Shown here one piece after another: positions 6,007 to 27,029 of a stretch of DNA of 64,000 nt. The notes beneath the pieces were generated by a model, which saw only the letters and a list, made by a program, of their open reading frames with translations, did no database searches and was not told the origin of the DNA. Position 1 is the first letter of the stretch, and each line of letters opens with the position of its first letter. This DNA comes from a bacterium (lineage in GTDB: Bacteria > Patescibacteriota > Minisyncoccia > Phycocordibacterales > UBA5272), in contig JAYVHM010000001.1 in NCBI GenBank assembly GCA_043771335.1, positions 28,773 through 92,772 on the forward strand. Reading direction: 5' to 3'. The position numbers and the translations under genes were made by a program.

Positions 6007-7458
6007 CTAAAAACCGCTCACGCTCATTGCTGGCATTTGAAAATCTCCAAATGCGTCCTCGGCGACTTCTGAGAAGCTGGTAGTCTTTGCATCGAACATT
6101 AACTTGACCATTCCTGTAGCACCATTACGATGTTTTTCTATCAGTAACTCTACCACATTATTATTCTGAGCCTGCTCACCATACTTCTCTTCACGATGTA
6201 TGAACATAACCACGTCAGCATCCTGCTCGATTGATCCTGAGTCACGAAGGTCGGACAGGCGAGGTTTACCTCCACGCTGTTCTACATTACGACTTAGCTG
6301 TGATAGAGCGATTACGGGGCAGTTGAACTCTTTTGCTAACACTTTTAATGATTTAGATATATCACTCACCTGATGCACCATGCTATCAAAATTTTTAGTA
6401 GTGCTCATAAGTTGTAAGTAGTCCACTATGATTAACCCTACAGGCTTCTCAGCGCGTAACCTACGTAACACTGAGCGCATGTTCACAATGTTATTAGCTG
6501 GCGTATCGTCTATGAATATCGGAGCTTTTGACAATTCATTTAGTCCTTGTTGCAGTCTCTCTATGTCATGTTCCATAGATAATTTCCCAGTACGCAGTTT
6601 CCAGCCATCCACATGTGACTGAGCAGCTAGCATACGGTCAAAAAGCTGCTCTTTACTCATTTCCAATGAGAATATTGCAGTGTGCACATTATGCTTCACG
6701 GCTGCTGAACGGGCAAAGTCTAACATGAGTGATGACTTACCAACAGACGGACGGGCAGCTAAAATAATTAAGTCAGATTTTTGAAATCCAGATAGTTTGT
6801 GATCAACAGAAGAGAAGCCAGTCGGCACGCCACGCAGACTACCATCGTCACCCTGCATCATTTCTATTCTTTCCCAGGCACCGTCTATTAGCTCAGCTAA
6901 TTTTACTAATTTCCCGGCACCAGTTCCAAAACTAGTTATCTCAAATATATCTTTTTCTGCTGTCTCTAATATATGTTCTACTTCGTGTTTTTCTTCGTAA
7001 CTTACATCGGCTATTTTTGTACTAACTTCTATGAGCCTTCTTAAGAGTTCTTTCTTTTTTAAAATAGTCGCATAGTATTTTATATTTGCAGCAGATGCTA
7101 CGAAATTAGAAAGCTCAGCCAAATAAGCTGGTCCACCTATTTGATCTAAAATATTTTTTTGTTTTAATTTATTATTGAGCGAGATTAGGTCTACCGGTTC
7201 CTTTGCAGCAGTTAACTCTTGCATTGTATTCCATATGCTTCTGTGTTTTTCTGCATAGAAACTTTTCTCTCGTATCAAATCTTCTATATCATAGTAACTT
7301 TCAGGTGAGATGATGATAGCGCCGAGCAGAGCACGCTCACTATCTATATCTTGAGGAGGCACACGCATACCATCAAATGGATTCTTGCTATCATATCTTC
7401 TATTCTTGTCTCCAAAATTATCATATTTCTTTTTATATTCTTTTTGTGAGTCTGACAT
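6007..7458 (-). CDS. dnaB: Replicative DNA helicase DnaB
   Basis: The protein is 483 aa with a RecA-like C-domain and a Walker A 'ARPSVGKSS'. The motifs 'GLIIVDYLQLM' and 'ALSQLSR' are typical of DnaB. Confidence 0.9.
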   Translation of the reverse strand: MSDSQKEYKKKYDNFGDKNRRYDSKNPFDGMRVPPQDIDSERALLGAIIISPESYYDIEDLIREKSFYAEKHRSIWNTMQELTAAKEPVDLISLNNKLKQKNILDQIGGPAYLAELSNFVASAANIKYYATILKKKELLRRLIEVSTKIADVSYEEKHEVEHILETAEKDIFEITSFGTGAGKLVKLAELIDGAWERIEMMQGDDGSLRGVPTGFSSVDHKLSGFQKSDLIILAARPSVGKSSLMLDFARSAAVKHNVHTAIFSLEMSKEQLFDRMLAAQSHVDGWKLRTGKLSMEHDIERLQQGLNELSKAPIFIDDTPANNIVNMRSVLRRLRAEKPVGLIIVDYLQLMSTTKNFDSMVHQVSDISKSLKVLAKEFNCPVIALSQLSRNVEQRGGKPRLSDLRDSGSIEQDADVVMFIHREEKYGEQAQNNNVVELLIEKHRNGATGMVKLMFDAKTTSFSEVAEDAFGDFQMPAMSVSGF

Positions 7459-7692
7459 GATATTTTTTAATTTATTATTTTTGTAAAAAGATATTAAGTT
7501 ATTTCTTATTTATAATTATAATATTTTAACAGTTATATATCTAGACTATGCAAGTCAAATATCTGTGTATTATGTGTAGAAGTCAAAATAATCATAAAAA
7601 TATAACTCTTGCATTTCAAAGACTTTTGTTGTAGTATGTAAAAGTAAGCCTATTTTAGGTTCTAAATCAACTTTTAAAGAAAGAGGTACAAA

Positions 7693-7998
7693 ATGGCAAC
7701 TTCCAGATTCATACAGGCCGCAGTAAGAGCCTTAGATCACACTGTCCAGAATAATCCTAACTGCGTCTGCAGTATTGATTTTAAGAATTCGCAAATTCTC
7801 CCATTCTTTCGAATTAATAATGTGCCAGAGTTTTTAAAAAATACAGAAGTAAAGCATTATAAAGTTACTATAAAAATAGTTGATTCTACTAAAAAAATCT
7901 CAAAAGTTATTTATAAAATACATAGGTCTCATCAACGTTGGTGGTTCAGGATCATTGAAGAAACTGAACTGGATGAATTCATAGAAATAGATGGTTAA
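7693..7998 (+). CDS. Hypothetical protein (101 aa)
   Basis: An ORF with a downstream hairpin terminator. No motif was recognised. Confidence 0.35.
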   Translation: MATSRFIQAAVRALDHTVQNNPNCVCSIDFKNSQILPFFRINNVPEFLKNTEVKHYKVTIKIVDSTKKISKVIYKIHRSHQRWWFRIIEETELDEFIEIDG

Positions 7999-8007
7999 AT
8001 TAAGATA

Positions 8008-8046: not shown

Positions 8047-8715
8047 TTATTTCCTAAAACTAAAAGCAGATTTAAAAGTATCATGATCTATATACTCCAT
8101 CTCAAGACCAGTAGACACACCACGAGCTAACATTGAGATTTTTACTTTATCCATACCAACTACTTGGGTTATGGTTTTTTTAATATATTCCACCTGATTA
8201 TCACCTTCGTCATTCGCTGGTAATGCAAATATTATCTCAGATAAATTAGCAGTTTTCTCTTCTGAGTTTTCTTGATTTTCTACTCTAGAATCTAATTTCT
8301 TTCTAAGTATTTCCACCAGCTCACGTATTCTTATATGCTCTCGAGGGTCATCGACAAGGAAAGGTAACTTACCTCCGGTTACAAAGTATACACCACTATA
8401 CTCAGAAGTTTTTTCTATGGCATTTACGTCTAATTCTTTTTCTACGATTAATACTACTTTTCTGTCTCTGCTTTCGTCACTACAAATATTACATAATTTA
8501 TTTTTCTCAACATTTACATTTGTATTAGAAAAAAAAGAATAACACTCAGCACATTGTGAGCTATTTAATTTTATATTCAAAATATTTTTGGATAAGCTAT
8601 CTATAAAGTTTTTATTCTGTTTCATCAAGTAATAAGCAAAACGCTCAGCCTGCTTTGGGCCGATACCAGGTAATCTCTGTAAATCTGCTATGAGGCTATC
8701 TTTTACGTTATTCAT
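8047..8715 (-). CDS. recR: Recombination protein RecR
   Basis: The N-terminal HhH motif 'LPGIGPKQAERFAYYL' is present, followed by a C4 zinc finger 'CAECYSF...CNICS' and a Toprim domain. The protein is 222 aa. Confidence 0.85.
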   Translation of the reverse strand: MNNVKDSLIADLQRLPGIGPKQAERFAYYLMKQNKNFIDSLSKNILNIKLNSSQCAECYSFFSNTNVNVEKNKLCNICSDESRDRKVVLIVEKELDVNAIEKTSEYSGVYFVTGGKLPFLVDDPREHIRIRELVEILRKKLDSRVENQENSEEKTANLSEIIFALPANDEGDNQVEYIKKTITQVVGMDKVKISMLARGVSTGLEMEYIDHDTFKSAFSFRK

Positions 8716-19166: not shown

Positions 19167-19946
19167 TTATGTTACCAAAGCAAATAATACAGGACAATCA
19201 AAACCGCTATCACGATCATCTTTGAAACTTATTCTTGGTTTGATGTAACCCAAAAGATTATCTATTTGAATTCTACTGGCATCATCCACATCAAAGAGAA
19301 TAAAATTATTAGCAACAGTCCTATTACTTATTTCTTTTTTATAAAATAAATAAGCTAAAGCATTTGGACTATTCACAAAATCTTCTGTAATATCTTTGAG
19401 GTTTTTCATACCAATACCATGACCTGGGGAGAATAATGTCTTAACGATGATTACACTGGCATCTCTTTTTTGTTTTAGCATGCGTAACTCTAGAAGTATT
19501 AGTTCGTAAATCTTGCTAGTTTTTTCTTTAGCTACATCAAGGTAATTTGGAGCAATACTATCTGTTCCACCTGGATACAGTATATGAAAAATATCTTGCC
19601 ATAAATCATCGTCAGATGCCGGAGCAAAAGCAAGGAAGGTGGTAAGTGGGTAAGCTGCTGTAATTTCTAGTCCTTCAGAATAATTAGAACATTTGACTAC
19701 AGTCTGTCCTTCTTTTAGATTTGGACTTTTCAGTTTTATAAATTTCTCTAATTTTCTAATTTTTACTGTTGCTTCTGCTTGAGTATTCTTATAGATATCA
19801 TTAATTGATTTCTGAAGTCGTACAACTTCAAAGAGTTTCTTGTCTGTAATATTATGCTTATAGGCTAGAAAGATTCGATTATTTTTAATAAGTCCGATCA
19901 TAAACTTACGCAGATCTAAGGCTTCTAGTTTTGTAAATTCTACCAT
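19167..19946 (-). CDS. Hypothetical protein (259 aa)
   Basis: A long ORF with no motif recognised. Confidence 0.45.
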   Translation of the reverse strand: MVEFTKLEALDLRKFMIGLIKNNRIFLAYKHNITDKKLFEVVRLQKSINDIYKNTQAEATVKIRKLEKFIKLKSPNLKEGQTVVKCSNYSEGLEITAAYPLTTFLAFAPASDDDLWQDIFHILYPGGTDSIAPNYLDVAKEKTSKIYELILLELRMLKQKRDASVIIVKTLFSPGHGIGMKNLKDITEDFVNSPNALAYLFYKKEISNRTVANNFILFDVDDASRIQIDNLLGYIKPRISFKDDRDSGFDCPVLFALVT

Positions 19947-20106
19947 TTGATTTTCTCCAATAAGATTATCAGTTTAAAAAGGGCAATGACTTTGCAATTA
20001 ATGCATTCGTCAAAAAAAACTATAACACTTTTTTATGATAAAAGCAAATTAAAGGTTTGGCTAATTTTAAAATTATGGAAAAATGATAATATCTATAATG
20101 TTTCTA

Positions 20107-20729: not shown

Positions 20730-22346
20730 ATGAATGACATATTTACAAGTCAAAAAAGACAAGATACTTTACTGATAGAAAAATACAGTACTGACGCTAG
20801 CATTTTTAAAGTGACACCAAGAGAAGCTATAGAGTCTGTGGATTTTAAAAATGTAATCGAATCCATAAAAAACAAGGAAAAGTTTTCAGTTAGAGCCGCT
20901 GGAACATGCATGAGTGGTGGGTCGCTAACTAATGAAAAAGTAATACGTATAAAACCTATAAAAAACTTTAAACTTAAATCGGGAGACATAAATACAGAAA
21001 ATCCTTCTGACGACACTCAGAACATATCAGAATACATATGGGTTGATTCTAATATATATATAAAAGACTTATTAGAAGAATTAAAAAAAAGAAATAAGTT
21101 TTTTGCACCTTATACTAGCTCAAAAGACGTTTGCATGTTATCTGGAATGATAGGTAATAACAGTAGTGGAGAAAAGTCACTAACTTACGGACCAACTAGT
21201 AGAAATATTTCAGAATTAAAAGTTATATTAAATACAAAAGAACTTTATGGTGAAGTGTATCACGCCAAAGAAAAGAAAATAATGGAGAGTGATGGCTTAG
21301 AAAGATATGACTACAAATTTGAAGAAGAGATAGTAAATATAATAAAAAACAATCTAGAAATAATAAATAAAAATAAACCAACTACCAATAAAAATGCTGC
21401 TGGATATAACATGTGGGATGTGTACGATTCAGAAAAGAATACTTTTAATCTAACTCCACTTTTTATAGGAGCGCAGGGGACACTAGGTATAGTTACAGAA
21501 GCAAAAATAAAAATAAAAAATATTTTAAAATTTGAGTGTATGCTTATTATACCGCTTAGTAACATACATGAATTACCAAGTGTAGTTAAGGAAGCAGTGA
21601 GTGGTGGCGCCACTAGTGTTGAATGTTTTGATCATGAGACTTATGAATTAGCTAAAATACACATGGCTCAAGATTCAAAACTAGCAAATTACGCTAATAA
21701 TAAAAAAATAGTTATATTTGCAGAATTCTGCAATGATAAAATATCTGTAAATAAAAATAAAATAAATCTATTAAAAAATAATTTACATAAATTAGGAATA
21801 AATAGTTACTTGACAGAAAATATAGAAGAGAGCCAGGCTTATTGGAACATAAGGAGAGCAAGCTTTAAATTACTAAGAGACTTTGCTCCAAAGGGATACA
21901 AAGCGATACCAATCATAGAGGATACTATTATTTCACTCGAACATTATGACAACTACTTAAAAGAGTTGCTTGAAATACTTTACAAATATGACATGCGTTA
22001 TACTTATGCTGGACATATCGGAGATGGATCCATAAGACTAATACCACTTATAAGAAAAGACCAAACAGGAGCAAAAGAGGATATTTTAAATATGGCCGAC
22101 GAAGTATACACACTAGTCAAAAAATACAATGGTAGTATTAGCTGTGATCACAATGATGGACTCGCTCGCACTTATGCACTAAGCATGCAGTATGACGAGG
22201 AAATACTACATATATTCAAAGATATAAAATCTATTTTAGATTATAATAACATACTTAACCCGGGCAAGAAAATCACTCATTGTAAAAATTACAATAATAA
22301 TAGAGAAGCAAGGGAGTATGTATTAAAAAATATTTATCTAGCTTAG
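20730..22346 (+). CDS. FAD-linked oxidoreductase (PCMH-type FAD-binding, GlcD/D-lactate dehydrogenase-like)
   Basis: The N-terminal part has an FAD-binding-domain pattern 'VRAAGTCMSGGSL'. The 538-aa length is consistent with the family. Confidence 0.55.
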   Translation: MNDIFTSQKRQDTLLIEKYSTDASIFKVTPREAIESVDFKNVIESIKNKEKFSVRAAGTCMSGGSLTNEKVIRIKPIKNFKLKSGDINTENPSDDTQNISEYIWVDSNIYIKDLLEELKKRNKFFAPYTSSKDVCMLSGMIGNNSSGEKSLTYGPTSRNISELKVILNTKELYGEVYHAKEKKIMESDGLERYDYKFEEEIVNIIKNNLEIINKNKPTTNKNAAGYNMWDVYDSEKNTFNLTPLFIGAQGTLGIVTEAKIKIKNILKFECMLIIPLSNIHELPSVVKEAVSGGATSVECFDHETYELAKIHMAQDSKLANYANNKKIVIFAEFCNDKISVNKNKINLLKNNLHKLGINSYLTENIEESQAYWNIRRASFKLLRDFAPKGYKAIPIIEDTIISLEHYDNYLKELLEILYKYDMRYTYAGHIGDGSIRLIPLIRKDQTGAKEDILNMADEVYTLVKKYNGSISCDHNDGLARTYALSMQYDEEILHIFKDIKSILDYNNILNPGKKITHCKNYNNNREAREYVLKNIYLA

Positions 22347-23377
22347 TGAGGATGCGTGTGAATATTTTTTTCATTACTAGAAACCAAATATACAGCAATT
22401 ACTGTTGTCAGTGGTATAGCCAATAATAACCCTACAGAGCCGATAAGTGATCTAAATATTTCTGTAGCTATTATTTCTTTATTTAATAAAAATACTGGGT
22501 CTAATTTACTAGTATACATGAGTAAGAGTAACGGTAAGGCAGAACCAACATAAGCAAGGACAAGGGTATTAATCATAGCCCCAGCATGATCTGACCCTAC
22601 ACGCATAGCTCTTTTATAATATTCTGCGTTACTTAAATTTTTATTTGCATGTTTTAACTCAGCCACTATTCCTGCTTGAGTTATAGCACCATCATCCACC
22701 ACACCTATTACTCCTATTATTATGCTAGCTATTACCAGAAGTGGGAAATTAATAATTCCTTCTGTATTAAAATATAAATAAGAGCTTGTCTCATCTACAA
22801 ATCCAGTTATATTTGCATTAATAATAGTTAGATAAGAAATAATTATAGTTATAAAAATAGAAATAGAGCAACCAAGCAATGCAGAATGTGTTACTCTATT
22901 ATTACCATGAGTTAAAAACATAACGGAAAACAATAAACAAATAGAAATAAAACTTGCAACCAGTACTGGATTGTATCCTTTTAAAGTTAATGGGAGTAGT
23001 ATAAAAAATATAATACCAAGTGAGACCAGAAGTGAAGATAGAGCTCTAAGACCTTTTTTTCCAAATACAACAACTATGACAGATATAAATAAAAATAAAG
23101 TTATTAAAATAGAATTATATTTTACAGATTCTCCAAGATTATAATAAATAGAACCATCTATTTCTTTTATTTCCTCTAAAAAAACTCTATCTCCTATCTC
23201 AAAAGCATATCCATTTGAGTATGTGTTTATTATTTTACCGATATTTTCACCTTCTAATATTTCAACTTCATAATTTGGGAAAAGTACTTCAGTATTAGTG
23301 CTATTAATTATTTTTACTACTTCTGATTTATAATTATTAACTTCTGGTAAAATTATTTTAACTTCATTTTTATTCAT
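22343..23377 (-). CDS. YibE/F-family integral membrane protein
   Basis: An N-terminal extracytoplasmic domain is followed by multiple TM helices, and the C-terminal region 'GSDHAGAMINTLVLAYVGSALPLLLL' is typical of YibE/F. Confidence 0.55.
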   Translation of the reverse strand: MNKNEVKIILPEVNNYKSEVVKIINSTNTEVLFPNYEVEILEGENIGKIINTYSNGYAFEIGDRVFLEEIKEIDGSIYYNLGESVKYNSILITLFLFISVIVVVFGKKGLRALSSLLVSLGIIFFILLPLTLKGYNPVLVASFISICLLFSVMFLTHGNNRVTHSALLGCSISIFITIIISYLTIINANITGFVDETSSYLYFNTEGIINFPLLVIASIIIGVIGVVDDGAITQAGIVAELKHANKNLSNAEYYKRAMRVGSDHAGAMINTLVLAYVGSALPLLLLMYTSKLDPVFLLNKEIIATEIFRSLIGSVGLLLAIPLTTVIAVYLVSSNEKNIHTHPH

Positions 23378-23382
23378 ATATT

Positions 23383-23811
23383 TTAAGCACAGGACTTACA
23401 AAGTCCGTAAATATCTACAGAAGGGCTTGTGTTGACAGTAGAAAATTTTTTACTTTTCTTTACTAATTTTTTCAAAGACTCTTCAAAATAGCTGGCATTT
23501 ATTTTCTCCATAATCTCACAGTTATTACAAATAATTTTATGTACTACTTCATCGCTAGTCATCTCATAATGAGCATGACCGTGGTTATAGTCAAAACGAG
23601 ATATAATTCCTGATTCTTCTAATGATGTCAGGTTACGATAGACAGTGGCCTGATCTATATCATATCTTTTCTTTAAATCCTCTATTAATTTATGTACAGC
23701 TACTGGTGACTTGGATTTTGAGACTCGAGTTAACACAGCTAATCTGTGTTCAGTTAATTTTAAATCAGATTCTTTTATTAGACTTACCAATTCTGTTTCT
23801 GTGTATTTCAT
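23383..23811 (-). CDS. Fur-family metalloregulator (Fur/Zur/PerR-like)
   Basis: The protein is 142 aa with a winged-helix 'ATVYRNLTSLEESGII' and the metal-site residues 'HGHAHYEM' and 'CNNCEIM...CKSC'. Confidence 0.8.
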   Translation of the reverse strand: MKYTETELVSLIKESDLKLTEHRLAVLTRVSKSKSPVAVHKLIEDLKKRYDIDQATVYRNLTSLEESGIISRFDYNHGHAHYEMTSDEVVHKIICNNCEIMEKINASYFEESLKKLVKKSKKFSTVNTSPSVDIYGLCKSCA

Positions 23812-23824
23812 ATATTTTATAATT

Positions 23825-24403
23825 TTAATTATGTTTTCTATGAATATTAAAGGTTTTTAAAAGTAATCTTATGACAATTGCAAATAAAGAAGCTAAGGCC
23901 ACAGCTTCTAAAACTTCATGGTATTTTTCATTTATTTCTGTGCCTATATAATAAAAAATAAATGCAGAAATAGGCAAGCCCACTTGTGTATAAACTAAAT
24001 ATTTTATACTCTTTAAGAAAGTTTTTACTTCAGATATTATAATTAAATATGTTCCAAATATCTTAGGCAGTTCATGACCAAAAACAGATAAAAGTGTTCC
24101 CACTCCCAAGCTAGGATTAACATAAAAGGCAAAACCTATGATCGCTCCGTCTAAAAGAGAATGAATAAACTCTGTAAATATTAAAGCTTTTAACTCTTTC
24201 TTATGAGTGTGATTATGCGTAAAGTAAGTAATAAACAAGTAGACAAATATAAAGGAGAAGAAAACAATAATAAAACTTATTTTATTAAAATCATTTGAAT
24301 GCTCAAGTAATGAATCATAAAGTCCAAAACCAATAAACATAGACCCCAGTATTAGTGTAAAAGTTTGTATTTCTTTTTGATAATTTATAAAAAAGTTTTT
24401 CAT
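23825..24403 (-). CDS. Short ZIP-family (ZupT-like) divalent metal transporter
   Basis: Two ZIP signatures are present: the TM4 motif 'HSLLDGAIIG' and the TM5 motif 'GHELPKIFG'. The 192-aa length is short for the family. Confidence 0.55.
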   Translation of the reverse strand: MKNFFINYQKEIQTFTLILGSMFIGFGLYDSLLEHSNDFNKISFIIVFFSFIFVYLFITYFTHNHTHKKELKALIFTEFIHSLLDGAIIGFAFYVNPSLGVGTLLSVFGHELPKIFGTYLIIISEVKTFLKSIKYLVYTQVGLPISAFIFYYIGTEINEKYHEVLEAVALASLFAIVIRLLLKTFNIHRKHN

Positions 24404-24410
24404 GAATTTA

Positions 24411-24426
24411 TTGTATATTTATACAA
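24411..24426. promoter_or_regulatory. Candidate Zur/Fur-type operator palindrome in the divergent promoter
   Basis: TTGTATA-TT-TATACAA is a perfect 7-bp inverted repeat lying 8 nt from the ZIP-gene start codon, between the ZIP-Fur operon and the NAS gene. Confidence 0.4.
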
Positions 24427-24485
24427 AATATATCACAAATGCAAATAACTTGCAACTAGACAATAATTATGTTACTCTATGAAAA

Positions 24486-25247
24486 ATGAAAGATTTAAAG
24501 ATATTCCACAAAATATTAAACTTAAAATCCTTAAAACCTTCAAAAGAAACGAATGAGGCTTTTTCAGAATTAGTAAGATATTCTGAAAATAGCTTTAATA
24601 AAGTTAATCTAAATGAGTTAGAAATATTTAAACTTAGAAAACTTTCTTCTGAAGCAGAGTATGAGATGGAAGTACACTGGGCAGATAAAATAATAAAATC
24701 TAAAAACCCAAATGATGAACTTAAAAAGTTTTGGTATTATAAAAATTATGAAGATCTTGTAACTTTAGAACATATAAATATAATAAGTATAAATAAAAAA
24801 GTAAAGAAAGTTTTATTTGTAGGTGGTGGTCCATTACCACTAACAGCAATAGTATTAGCTACAAAATATAATAAAGATTGTATTGTACTAGAAAAAGATG
24901 AATTAAGTTTTTTAAAATCTTCTGAACTAATATCAAAATTAAAATTGGATAAACAGATAAAAATTATAAATATAAAAGCAGAAAATTATAACGCTTACAA
25001 TGAGTATGATTTAATTTACTTAGCAGCTCTGGTTGGGGAAAATGAAAAATCAAAGACTAAGACAGTCAATTATATCTACAAACGACTATGTAACAAAAGT
25101 TTATTTTTATGTAGATCGTCTCACGGAAGTAGAAAGATAATCTATAACCCTATTAATAAAAATATATTCAAAAAACTAAAACCCTTATTAGAAGTCAGGC
25201 CATATAGCTCCATAATTAATTCTTTTTTTATCTTGCAAAAAAATTAA
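24486..25247 (+). CDS. Nicotianamine synthase-like enzyme (NAS/CntL family, SAM-dependent aminobutyryl transferase)
   Basis: Three blocks align with plant and archaeal NAS. 'LKSLKPSKETNEAFSELV' aligns with 'LESLKPSKDVNILFKQLV'. 'KKVLFVGGGPLPLTAIVLA' aligns with 'VAFIGSGPLPLTSIVLA'. 'LIYLAALVGENEKSKTK...LFLCRSSHGSRKIIYNPI' aligns with 'VVFLAALVGMNKEEKVK...LMLRSAHGPRAFLYPIV'. Confidence 0.8.
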   Translation: MKDLKIFHKILNLKSLKPSKETNEAFSELVRYSENSFNKVNLNELEIFKLRKLSSEAEYEMEVHWADKIIKSKNPNDELKKFWYYKNYEDLVTLEHINIISINKKVKKVLFVGGGPLPLTAIVLATKYNKDCIVLEKDELSFLKSSELISKLKLDKQIKIINIKAENYNAYNEYDLIYLAALVGENEKSKTKTVNYIYKRLCNKSLFLCRSSHGSRKIIYNPINKNIFKKLKPLLEVRPYSSIINSFFILQKN

Positions 25248-25305
25248 AAAAGTTGTAAGATAAAAAATATGCTCCTTCGATAAATTAAAAATTAGAAAGT
25301 AAAAT

Positions 25306-25872
25306 ATGAAAAATGTAGAATTAGAAAGATTATTAAGTTACACAGAAACAGAAGTTAATTCTTTGCTTTTATCTTATGCCGAATATAAAGAACTTTCTAA
25401 ACAAATAGATTTAGGTCAAGTTGAAAATAAATCTAAACCTAGTTTTTCTTTTTTTAAAAATATAGGAAAAATGCAAAACTTGGACCCATTGACTGATGCT
25501 AAAAAAGAATTAAATAAAATCGGTGAGGATATGAAGTTTCAAAATCCCTTGATTTGGCTAACATACAAAGATGTTGCTTATAAAAATGAACCAGGCAAGG
25601 CCTTAAATACATTAAGAGACCTAAGAGAGCATTGTAAAGTAGACGGCATTTGTTTTAGAAGATTTGATGCTATTAATTCTTATTTAAGATCTAAACATAA
25701 CGGACTAGACTTGAACTCTGATTATTTTCTTGCGGCCGAGACTAGACTTGAAATTCTAGAAAAAGATTCTAGATTCATACAGATGTGCCTAGATAAAGAA
25801 TTCATTAGCTGTTGGCATTCTAATGAAAATGACAGATCAGGGAAATGGAAGAATTACAAGATATCTGCTTAG
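25306..25872 (+). CDS. Hypothetical protein (188 aa) downstream of the NAS-like gene
   Basis: An ORF with no motif recognised. Its 3' end overlaps mnmA by 4 nt. Confidence 0.4.
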   Translation: MKNVELERLLSYTETEVNSLLLSYAEYKELSKQIDLGQVENKSKPSFSFFKNIGKMQNLDPLTDAKKELNKIGEDMKFQNPLIWLTYKDVAYKNEPGKALNTLRDLREHCKVDGICFRRFDAINSYLRSKHNGLDLNSDYFLAAETRLEILEKDSRFIQMCLDKEFISCWHSNENDRSGKWKNYKISA

Positions 25873-27029
25873 AGAATACCACCAAGAATCACAGCGCTCT
25901 TATCGTAGACAACAATACTTTGCCCAGATACGGCAAAAAAGTTTTCTGCAATAGGGGTGATTTTTATTTGCACACTATTATCTTTATCATTTATAGACTT
26001 TGTTATATTTAATTTTATCTCATATTTTTCACCCCTATATTTTGTCATGCAAGTATATATTTTGTTTTCATATATTTTATTTAAATCCACAAAACAATTT
26101 ACATCTTTTATAGTAACAATTTTTTCAGGGTTATTTTTATTAGATTCAAAGATTTTGTTTTCGTTTTGAGTTACATATAATATATTTTGCTCAAAATCTT
26201 TTTTATATACAAAATATGGTAGAAAACTATTGTTTATCTCTTTTTTACTTTCTAGAAAATTATTAAAATTAGCATCTACGTTATTTTTCTTTATCACGTT
26301 AAATCCATGTCTTTCACCAATTGTATATAATATAACTCCGTCATGAGTCCCTATTATTTCTCCTGTTTCATTACACACATCACCATTTTTTGGATTCAAT
26401 TCCTTTATTAAAAAGTCCTTCATGCTAATATCACCCAACATGCATATACCCATGCTTTCTTTTTTATCTGCAACATACAGATTATTATCTGTAGCTATTT
26501 TTCTAACTTCAGATTTTTCTAGGTCAGCAAGTGGGAATAATATATCTTTTAAATTTTCTTTTTTAATTTGATATAAAAAATATGTCTGATCTTTATTTAT
26601 ATCCTTAGGAATACATAAAAAATTATTTTTAATATTTGCATAGTGACCAGTAGCAATAATTGCTCCATTCTCTTTTGCATAATTTAAAAATCCATCGAAT
26701 TTTATATATTTATTACACATAATATCGGGGTTAGGGGTGTTATTTTTTGCGTATTCACTAAGCATATAATCTATAACATTATCTTTATACTCTTTCTCAA
26801 GATCAAGTGTTCTAAATGGAATATCAAGCTGCGCACATATACGCATAGCATCTAATCTGTCATTTTTCCAGGTGCATTCTATATAATCTGGTTGCCAAGT
26901 CTTTATAAATACGCCAGTCACATCATATCCGTCCTTTTTGAGTAAGTATGCAGATACAGCACTATCAACACCACCAGAGAGTCCAACATAGACTTTTTTA
27001 TTTCTTTTTTTATTAAAGAAGTTTAACAT
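25869..27029 (-). CDS. mnmA: tRNA-specific 2-thiouridylase MnmA
   Basis: The PP-loop 'VGLSGGVDSAVSAYLL' is present in a 386-aa protein with MnmA domain order. Confidence 0.85.
   Translation of the reverse strand: MLNFFNKKRNKKVYVGLSGGVDSAVSAYLLKKDGYDVTGVFIKTWQPDYIECTWKNDRLDAMRICAQLDIPFRTLDLEKEYKDNVIDYMLSEYAKNNTPNPDIMCNKYIKFDGFLNYAKENGAIIATGHYANIKNNFLCIPKDINKDQTYFLYQIKKENLKDILFPLADLEKSEVRKIATDNNLYVADKKESMGICMLGDISMKDFLIKELNPKNGDVCNETGEIIGTHDGVILYTIGERHGFNVIKKNNVDANFNNFLESKKEINNSFLPYFVYKKDFEQNILYVTQNENKIFESNKNNPEKIVTIKDVNCFVDLNKIYENKIYTCMTKYRGEKYEIKLNITKSINDKDNSVQIKITPIAENFFAVSGQSIVVYDKSAVILGGIL

Follow-up and report, generated by a model that had tools for sequence, protein, structure and literature searches.

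This work describes a compact gene module in a 64,000-nucleotide (nt) stretch of bacterial DNA (contig JAYVHM010000001.1, positions 28,773 to 92,772; hereafter, the window). The module combines a nicotianamine synthase (NAS)-family enzyme, a Fur-family metalloregulator, a shortened ZIP-family transporter, a YibE/F-family membrane protein, and an all-helical protein of 188 amino acids (aa). We favor the reading that it is a Zur-like low-metal (zinc) regulon that makes a nicotianamine (NA)-type chelator and employs the helical protein as a new adaptor domain for coupling to metal trafficking; we put the probability of this reading at about 0.6. The parts (NAS, Fur, and ZIP) are of known kinds; their combination with YibE/F and an undescribed partner domain is new. 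The first-pass annotation of this DNA had proposed a metal-regulated unit of Fur-family, ZIP-type, and NAS-family genes lacking CntM, and this core idea is reinforced by conservation of the gene set in relatives and by a common operator. The features, with coordinates counted within the window, are as follows:

22343..23377, minus strand: YibE/F-family membrane protein, 344 aa, last gene of the ZIP-fur-yibEF operon; PF07907 match; candidate metal or chelator transporter
23383..23811, minus strand: Fur-family metalloregulator, 142 aa; PF01475 match at 63.6 bits (cut-off, 23.1); presumed repressor of both divergent operons
23825..24403, minus strand: shortened ZIP-family transporter, 192 aa, about 6 transmembrane (TM) helices; assigned by motifs and fold, with a Pfam score below threshold
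24411..24426, no strand: AT-rich palindrome TTGTATA-TT-TATACAA, just downstream of the -10-like hexamer of the minus-strand operon
24440..24454, no strand: inverted repeat TGCAA-ATAAC-TTGCA, candidate operator, conserved in orthologous promoters
24486..25247, plus strand: NAS-family enzyme, 253 aa, core NAS only; PF03059 match; predicted S-adenosylmethionine (SAM)-dependent aminocarboxypropyl transferase
25306..25872, plus strand: all-helical partner protein of NAS, 188 aa; member of a domain family without prior description
25919..25937, plus strand: terminator-like hairpin, 47 nt past the stop codon of the 188-aa gene and inside the 3' end of the convergent mnmA gene; consensus scan only

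The NAS-family enzyme and its helical partner

The assignment of the protein encoded at 24486..25247 to the NAS family, made in the first-pass annotation from motif blocks, was borne out by profile comparison. PF03059 (IPR004298) matches the protein at 154.1 bits (cut-off, 27.1; E value of 6.3e-45), far above the cut-off, and the alignment places residues 4 to 252 on positions 13 to 271 of 276, which is nearly the full profile. All of the motif blocks quoted earlier (LKPSKETNEAFSELV, FVGGGPLPLTAIVLA, and LAALVG...SSHGSRKIIYNP) are found in the protein, and the four open reading frames of that annotation lie at their given coordinates. The catalytic Glu/Tyr pair of the family is E81/Y107 in MtNAS (from Methanothermobacter thermautotrophicus) and E77/Y106 in AtNAS1 (PMC10248798). 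The equivalent residues of the window enzyme, E62 and Y88, are predicted to be catalytic and are intact and do not vary across 21 aligned sequences, plant NAS and MtNAS among them; G113, L117, P118, and T120 of the SAM-binding loop GGGPLPLT are likewise invariant.

Plant NAS aligns with the window enzyme at 107 bits, with 30 to 34% identity over 98% of the length, compared to only 49 bits for MtNAS. MtNAS structures (PDB entries 3FPE and 3O31 represent this enzyme) were the sole real matches in the PDB, at an E value of 4e-12; no CntL structure was among the PDB matches at an E value of ≤1, and the CntL equivalog model NF033601 gave 26.1 bits against a cut-off of 350. These scores place the window NAS nearer to the plant enzymes than to CntL or the archaeal MtNAS. 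Two elements near the reaction chamber of AtNAS1, E73 and 206-VGMD-209, are essential to NA formation and differ in microbial NAS-like enzymes (PMC10248798). In the window enzyme, the E73 equivalent is E58, and the insertion at the VGMD position is kept, reading VGEN. MtNAS shares with the window enzyme its family, fold class, catalytic pair, and status as a prokaryotic stand-alone enzyme without CntM, but its residue at the E58 position is Gly and its VGxx loop is shortened by a 4-residue deletion; the two enzymes may therefore differ in starter substrate and chain length. The absence of an adjacent CntM gene, pointed out in the first-pass annotation, holds more widely, as no CntM-like gene is present within 10 kb on either side in precomputed Pfam tables. 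Given the plant-like score, E58 and VGEN, the failure of the CntL model, and the lack of a nearby CntM, NA or a close analogue appears more likely than an opine as the product.

Two side observations concern NAS homologs in relatives, whose loci are designated here by L numbers. In some homologs, a GNAT acetyltransferase gene is either fused with NAS or overlaps it (P0046, 418 aa; L008, 8765-9268), which suggests N-acetylated NA-type products in those lineages. The NAS ortholog of L005, from the metagenome-assembled genome (MAG) GFS_14393, has an in-frame TGA at codon 150 (8448-8450), where the window codon is TCA (Ser). All neighbors of this gene are intact under the standard code, and the TGA reflects either a nonsense mutation or faulty assembly of that MAG.

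The 188-aa protein, earlier suggested as a possible part of the module, is strongly supported as such by its position and by gene fusions: in 14 of 14 sequences (the window and 13 loci), it is encoded directly downstream of NAS or fused to it. The protein has no match in Pfam or NCBIfam and no PDB relative by sequence or fold, and its AlphaFold2 (AF2) model is all-helical, with a predicted local distance difference test (pLDDT) score of 90.4. An exhaustive profile search yielded 173 representatives. On the basis of these searches, the protein defines a domain family without earlier description. In 20 of the 35 members that extend beyond the domain, it follows an N-terminal CobW/COG0523 GTPase, and in 4 it is fused to NAS; further fusions join it to a class I/II aminotransferase (one member) and to class-I SAM-enzyme (methyltransferase) folds (two or three members). 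As judged from these fusions, the domain has strong Rosetta-stone links to both NAS and COG0523. Across 187 family sequences, K88, H109, C116, R119, E174, and K180 are near-invariant, together with five aromatic residues (Trp/Tyr).

A Cys-rich C-terminal tail is found in 29 of 35 close members and in 36 of the 187 sequences of the wider family. Since the tail is absent from the window copy and from most of the family, the idea that these tails mark precursors of ribosomally synthesized and posttranslationally modified peptides was set aside. A similar tail occurs in L005 on a Pyr_redox_3 flavoprotein (6421-7596), which ends in ...SCGVNCTC, compared to ...DHDCEINCSC on a 188-aa homolog. The same L005 cluster, controlled by the operator box described below, encodes a 91-aa membrane protein (7638-7913) beginning with CKSCAVSCKEHCSH. 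In L008, a relic or miniature 188-aa domain lies upstream of NAS at 7693-8000 (NMKFPDA, followed by a stop, TWMLYKLHAYGDG, and, farther on, WRFHEYDPRGKWMNYEPDD); it is interrupted by a TAA in frame, and its central H-C…C-R segment is missing.

Candidate operator, regulator, and membrane proteins

Alignment of orthologous promoters revealed the inverted repeat TGCAA-N5-TTGCA, which in the window lies at 24440-24454, within the 82-bp promoter region shared by the two divergent operons. The 64 kb contain 1 exact copy, compared to 0.09 expected. The same box or its GCAA-N5-TTGC variant is present in NAS- or Fur-adjacent promoters of 11 other loci: L004, L005 (four copies), L006, L008, L010, L012 (two), L013, L014 (two), L017 (two), L018, and L022 (two). 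The four boxes of L005 precede ZIP, an ArsP-like permease, CobW plus the flavoprotein, and NAS. The extended consensus, ATGCAAnTnAnTTGCAT, has a 7-1-7 layout, which is that of the Fur, Zur, and PerR boxes of Bacillus subtilis. The box overlaps the self-complementary hexamer TTGCAA, a -35-like element (by consensus match only) usable by both divergent promoters. From its conservation and position, TGCAA-N5-TTGCA is likely the operator of the module.

The first-pass annotation had instead proposed the AT-rich palindrome, 14 bp from this box, as a Fur/Zur box. The palindrome is indeed present and perfect, yet perfect 7-2-7 inverted repeats number 12 in the window, compared to 10.2 ± 3.2 expected from first-order Markov simulations, and copies with ≤2 mismatches are not enriched in the window. 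In L004, a relative with 88% identity, it is already degraded, and the other orthologous promoters (L005, L006, L010, L012, and L013) lack it. For these reasons the palindrome was rejected, and it is probably no operator.

A one-mismatch copy of the box, GGCAATGACTTTGCA, was noted at 19982-19996, 36 nt upstream of a minus-strand gene (19167-19946) for a 259-aa orphan protein without a Pfam or NCBIfam match. As about 3.7 one-mismatch matches are expected per window, this copy is within chance and was not accepted as a second operator; the orphan gene could be a member of the regulon or lie near the copy by chance.

The regulator had been labeled Fur/Zur family, and the PF01475 match secures the family as Fur. 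The protein contains two CxxC pairs (C95/C98 and C137/C140) and an NHGHAHYE motif, and in an alignment of 10 module regulators both pairs are kept in 9 of 9 full-length orthologs. Scores against the equivalog models were all far below their cut-offs (Zur, 40 against 167; PerR, 57 against 180; Fur, 49 against 146), and the PDB relatives included Fur, PerR, and Zur proteins alike, all at E values of 1e-10 to 1e-4, with no discrimination among them. Similarity was therefore uninformative for subtyping the regulator as Zur, Fur, or PerR. COG0523 and ZIP are both hallmarks of Zur regulons, and the content of this regulon (ZIP and COG0523) points toward the Zur subfamily.

A comparison of regulator genes within the module separated two subtypes. 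The window, L005, L012, L013, and L017 carry NHGHAHYE…H(K/Q)IxC, versus the classic HHHHHxxC in L006, L008, L010, L014, and L022. The box variant tracks the regulator subtype, being TGCAA-N5-TTGCA for the former and GCAAC-N3-5-GTTGC for the latter (seen in L006, L008, and L022).

The 192-aa protein had been described as a minimal ZIP transporter with HSLLDGAIIG and HELP signatures. The signatures stand (residues 81 to 90 and 110 to 113; both invariant in orthologs), as does the fold, the top PDB fold matches of the AF2 model being all BbZIP (probability of 0.91 to 0.99 and TM-score of 0.50 to 0.59, with weak E values of 0.2 to 1.1). The score against PF02535, on the other hand, is below threshold (25.8 bits, with a gathering score of 35.1) and covers only profile positions 181 to 260 of 323 (TM4 to TM6), and the model (pLDDT of 75) has 7 helices, about 6 of them TM helices, rather than the family norm of 8. 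The TM4 motif H81-S82-x-x-D85-G and the TM5 motif H110-E111-x-P113-K114, in which Lys replaces the second Glu, are invariant in 7 orthologs. Relatives retain the protein at 60 to 65% identity; the orthologs span 175 to 192 aa, with longer forms of 224 to 250 aa that have an additional N-terminal TM helix. The orthologs from L005 and L012 are likewise below threshold for PF02535, and the 241-aa ortholog from L010 matches the Pfam Zip family at an E value of ≤1e-5 in a precomputed table. As modeled, the 192-aa protein is ZIP-derived and shortened to about 6 TM helices, and transport is predicted.

Intergenic gaps of 13 nt (ZIP-fur) and 5 nt (fur-yibEF) indicate that ZIP, fur, and yibEF form one operon, divergent from NAS and the 188-aa gene. 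The earlier inventory of the module was thus correct for the Fur-family, ZIP-type, and NAS-family genes but incomplete, as it had overlooked the YibE/F gene at 22343-23377 of the same operon. PF07907 matches the YibE/F protein at 224.9 bits (residues 90 to 329 on profile positions 1 to 240 of 241). Its N-terminal part is a non-membrane domain, and its C terminus is His-rich (NEKNIHTHPH). The ZIP protein also contains His-rich stretches, in a loop (THNHTHKKE) and at the C terminus (NIHRKHN), and these segments fit a predicted role in metal handling for both proteins. For YibE/F function, the literature retrieved consists of a TCDB listing as TC 9.B.141, function not known (PMC3924187), and a transposon-directed insertion-site sequencing result by which Staphylococcus aureus needs a YibE/F-like pair in metal-poor blood (PMC13227979), with nothing tying YibE/F to zinc. 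At the far side of the module, the hairpin at 25919..25937 is a possible end of the NAS operon.

Recurrence of the module and the proposed regulon

The first-pass annotation regarded so small a unit in a reduced genome as unusual. It is no one-off: the module recurs in a Candidate Phyla Radiation (CPR)-like lineage, and its NAS sequences form about 57 clusters at 90% identity. The gene set is found in varied orders and orientations around NAS homologs of 39 to 72% identity, including homologs of only 39 to 58%, and retention of the set despite rearranged order points to function rather than inherited synteny. YibE/F adjoins Fur in eight lineages (the window, L005, L006, L010, L012, L014, L017, and L022), ZIP is present in the NAS-homolog contexts of seven lineages, and a CbiA/CooC-like P-loop NTPase is present in four (L005, L006, L008, and L022). 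CobW/COG0523 is likewise present in four, under or beside the box in L005, L008, and L014 and beside NAS in L015. In L014, YibE/F-Fur is divergent from CobW plus a NAS-domain fusion, with two boxes, and in L015, NAS is followed by a CobW-domain fusion. A metagenome scan with alignment A1 returned 6 loci.

In the favored reading, the metal of the regulon is probably zinc, because ZIP and COG0523 under one Fur-family operator are the classic Zur signature. Under metal-replete conditions, the metallated regulator would bind TGCAA-N5-TTGCA, cover the -35-like TTGCAA of both promoters, and repress both operons. Under metal-poor conditions, the ZIP-fur-yibEF operon would be on, the shortened ZIP would import free cation, and YibE/F, with its His-rich tail, would move metal or chelator. 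The NAS-188-aa operon would also be on, and NAS would condense aminocarboxypropyl units of SAM into an NA-type polyamino-carboxylate chelator. The 188-aa protein would work directly with NAS as a ligand-binding adaptor, in which H109, C116, and E174, with K88, R119, and K180, would hold the metal-chelator complex, and it would join the chelator pool to COG0523-type metallochaperones. The gene identities, the conservation of module and box, and the fusions are observed; within this scheme, we infer the repression, the identities of metal and product, the direction of transport, and the mechanism of the adaptor.

Several points weigh against this reading. The sequence of the regulator does not place it in Zur over Fur, PerR, or Nur. 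No CobW gene was found in the 64-kb window by tblastn, so the COG0523 link derives from homology of context only. The ZIP protein is truncated and scores below threshold, and its activity is predicted only. E58 and the VGxx loop also occur in other uncharacterized bacterial NAS-like proteins and hence are no proof of NA as the product. The promoter elements are consensus matches in a host whose own promoters are uncharacterized. Finally, the metals handled by ZIP transporters and NA-type ligands also include Fe, Mn, Ni, and Co, which leaves some room for a response to iron or nickel.

The label "metal-acquisition" unit implied a secreted metallophore. The idea of metal regulation stands, whereas secretion had been assumed, and neither an exporter of known type (major facilitator superfamily/CntE-like) nor a binding-protein-dependent ATP-binding cassette (ABC) importer for a metallophore is conserved in any examined locus. 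Secretion would mean that the NA-like product is exported and its metal complex reimported, with YibE/F as exporter, importer, or both and ZIP serving free ions. The bacterial NAS-like enzymes characterized so far (CntL) do serve secreted metallophores (PMC7438024). Furthermore, of the conserved membrane proteins in the module, YibE/F alone lacks an assigned function, its N-terminal part is a non-membrane domain, and the need of S. aureus for a related pair in metal-poor blood would be in keeping with such a role. The partner domain, however, is cytosolic and is fused to cytosolic COG0523 chaperones, and plants and fungi use NA as a ligand inside their cells. The COG0523 links would suit secretion no better than a role for the chelator within the cell or a role in trafficking; we regard secretion as a tentative alternative.

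For the 188-aa protein, an enzymatic role would replace the adaptor role. It might tailor the NAS product in place of CntM or of NAAT/DMAS-type steps, yielding a new NA derivative. Its strict coupling and occasional fusion to NAS are as expected for such an enzyme, the near-invariant H109, C116, E174, K88, R119, and K180 resemble an active site, family fusions include a class I/II aminotransferase (one) and class-I SAM-enzyme folds (two), and the GNAT genes beside or fused to NAS in some relatives show that tailoring occurs. Nonetheless, the commonest fusion partner is the COG0523 GTPase (20 of 35) and no biosynthetic enzyme, and the fold is all-helical, with no cofactor-binding motif recognized and no structural relative. 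We therefore consider tailoring rather unlikely.

A regulon answering to iron (through a true Fur), nickel, or cobalt, with the chelator serving Fe(II) or Ni handling, seems similarly improbable to us. The best PDB and NCBIfam similarities of the regulator marginally favor Fur and PerR over Zur, NA binds Fe(II) and Ni well, ZIPs of the ZupT type carry Fe and Co, and the CbiA/CooC-like P-loop NTPases accompany four of the loci (L005, L006, L008, and L022). Against this stand the Zur signature of COG0523 plus ZIP and the lack of siderophore, haem, Feo-type iron, or Ni-enzyme genes in any neighborhood examined. Least probable is a metal-sensing regulatory domain in the 188-aa protein that switches NAS, COG0523, and other partners posttranslationally, as fusion to several unrelated catalytic domains, the conserved His, Cys, and Glu, the Cys-rich tails in 29 of 35 close members, and the autoinhibitory C-terminal extension of plant NAS (PMC10248798) would allow, but as the lack of this tail in the window copy, its presence in just 36 of 187 members of the wider family, and a total of only three conserved potential metal ligands argue against.

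The low-metal regulon with an adaptor can be taken one step farther, to a version that we advance with considerable reserve. Here, the 188-aa family would physically couple an NA-type chelator to COG0523 GTPases, handing metal between NA and the chaperone or the clients of the chaperone; NA would act as a cytosolic zinc buffer, and YibE/F would be the membrane transporter of the pathway. If this were true, it would assign first functions to two orphan families and a small-molecule step to bacterial zinc allocation, and CPR bacteria and other carriers of the fusions would buffer cytosolic zinc with NA. An adaptor tying COG0523 to a small-molecule ligand would also open to experiment the question of how COG0523 proteins receive and deliver zinc.

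Relation to known systems and hosts

In plant metal nutrition, NA-type chelators have a central place, and opine metallophores of the CntL type matter in zinc acquisition by pathogens. Stand-alone bacterial NAS genes, on the other hand, are almost unexplored. The module is a compact and repeatedly conserved regulon with a directly testable predicted operator, its hosts are probably ultra-small CPR bacteria, a group that retains very few genes for biosynthesis, and it offers concrete hypotheses for two orphan families, YibE/F (PF07907) and the new helical domain. According to a 2025 paper on NAS evolution, knowledge of the bacterial distribution of NAS is scant (PMC12454661). Our literature search returned no description of this module, although many subscription papers were outside its reach and a prior mention is possible. 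One paper on AZE synthase that mentions CPR proved unrelated to the NAS context.

The window enzyme resembles plant and fungal NAS (AtNAS1 and NcNAS) in its full PF03059 match, catalytic Glu/Tyr pair, AtNAS1 E73 equivalent, and VGMD-position insertion, and it shares a short "core-only" architecture with fungal and moss NAS. It differs from the plant and fungal enzymes in its bacterial (CPR-like) host, in VGEN rather than VGMD, in its Fur-family operator with transporter genes, and in the constant 188-aa partner. The Cnt systems for staphylopine, pseudopaline, yersinopine, and bacillopaline comprise CntL and CntM (with CntK in some cases), an ABC importer, and an exporter and are Zur regulated (PMC7438024). 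Like them, the module has a NAS-family enzyme that is grouped with transport genes in a regulon for metal starvation, controlled by a Fur-family repressor. Unlike them, it has no CntM, CntK, CntA-F, or CntE; its transporters are ZIP and YibE/F, and in the accessory position it has a new helical domain with links to COG0523. The combination of a plant-like core NAS with a Fur-family operator, found in CPR-like bacteria and lacking both CntM and Cnt transporters, is new.

A parallel in regulation is with the COG0523 Zur regulons (ZigA, YeiR, ZagA/YciC, and Zng1), in which a Fur-family operator also governs a metal importer; in relatives of the window module, a COG0523 GTPase completes the likeness. 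The differences are that COG0523 here often carries the new C-terminal domain and that NAS is part of the regulon. The module box TGCAAnT-n-AnTTGCA likewise has a core different from those of the described Fur, Zur, and PerR boxes.

With regard to hosts, the window probably derives from a bacterium of the CPR (Patescibacteria), Parcubacteria-like. The window uses the standard genetic code, with about 30% GC and 87% coding sequence, and one member of the family is labeled Candidatus Parcubacteria. In L015 (7204-9572), UGA codons occur in frame both in NAS and in the gene for the CobW-domain fusion, which has 7 of them. With UGA translated as Gly, the Walker A motif GTLGAGKT is regained; this indicates a code-25 organism of the Gracilibacteria/Absconditabacteria type with the same triad of NAS, the new domain, and COG0523.

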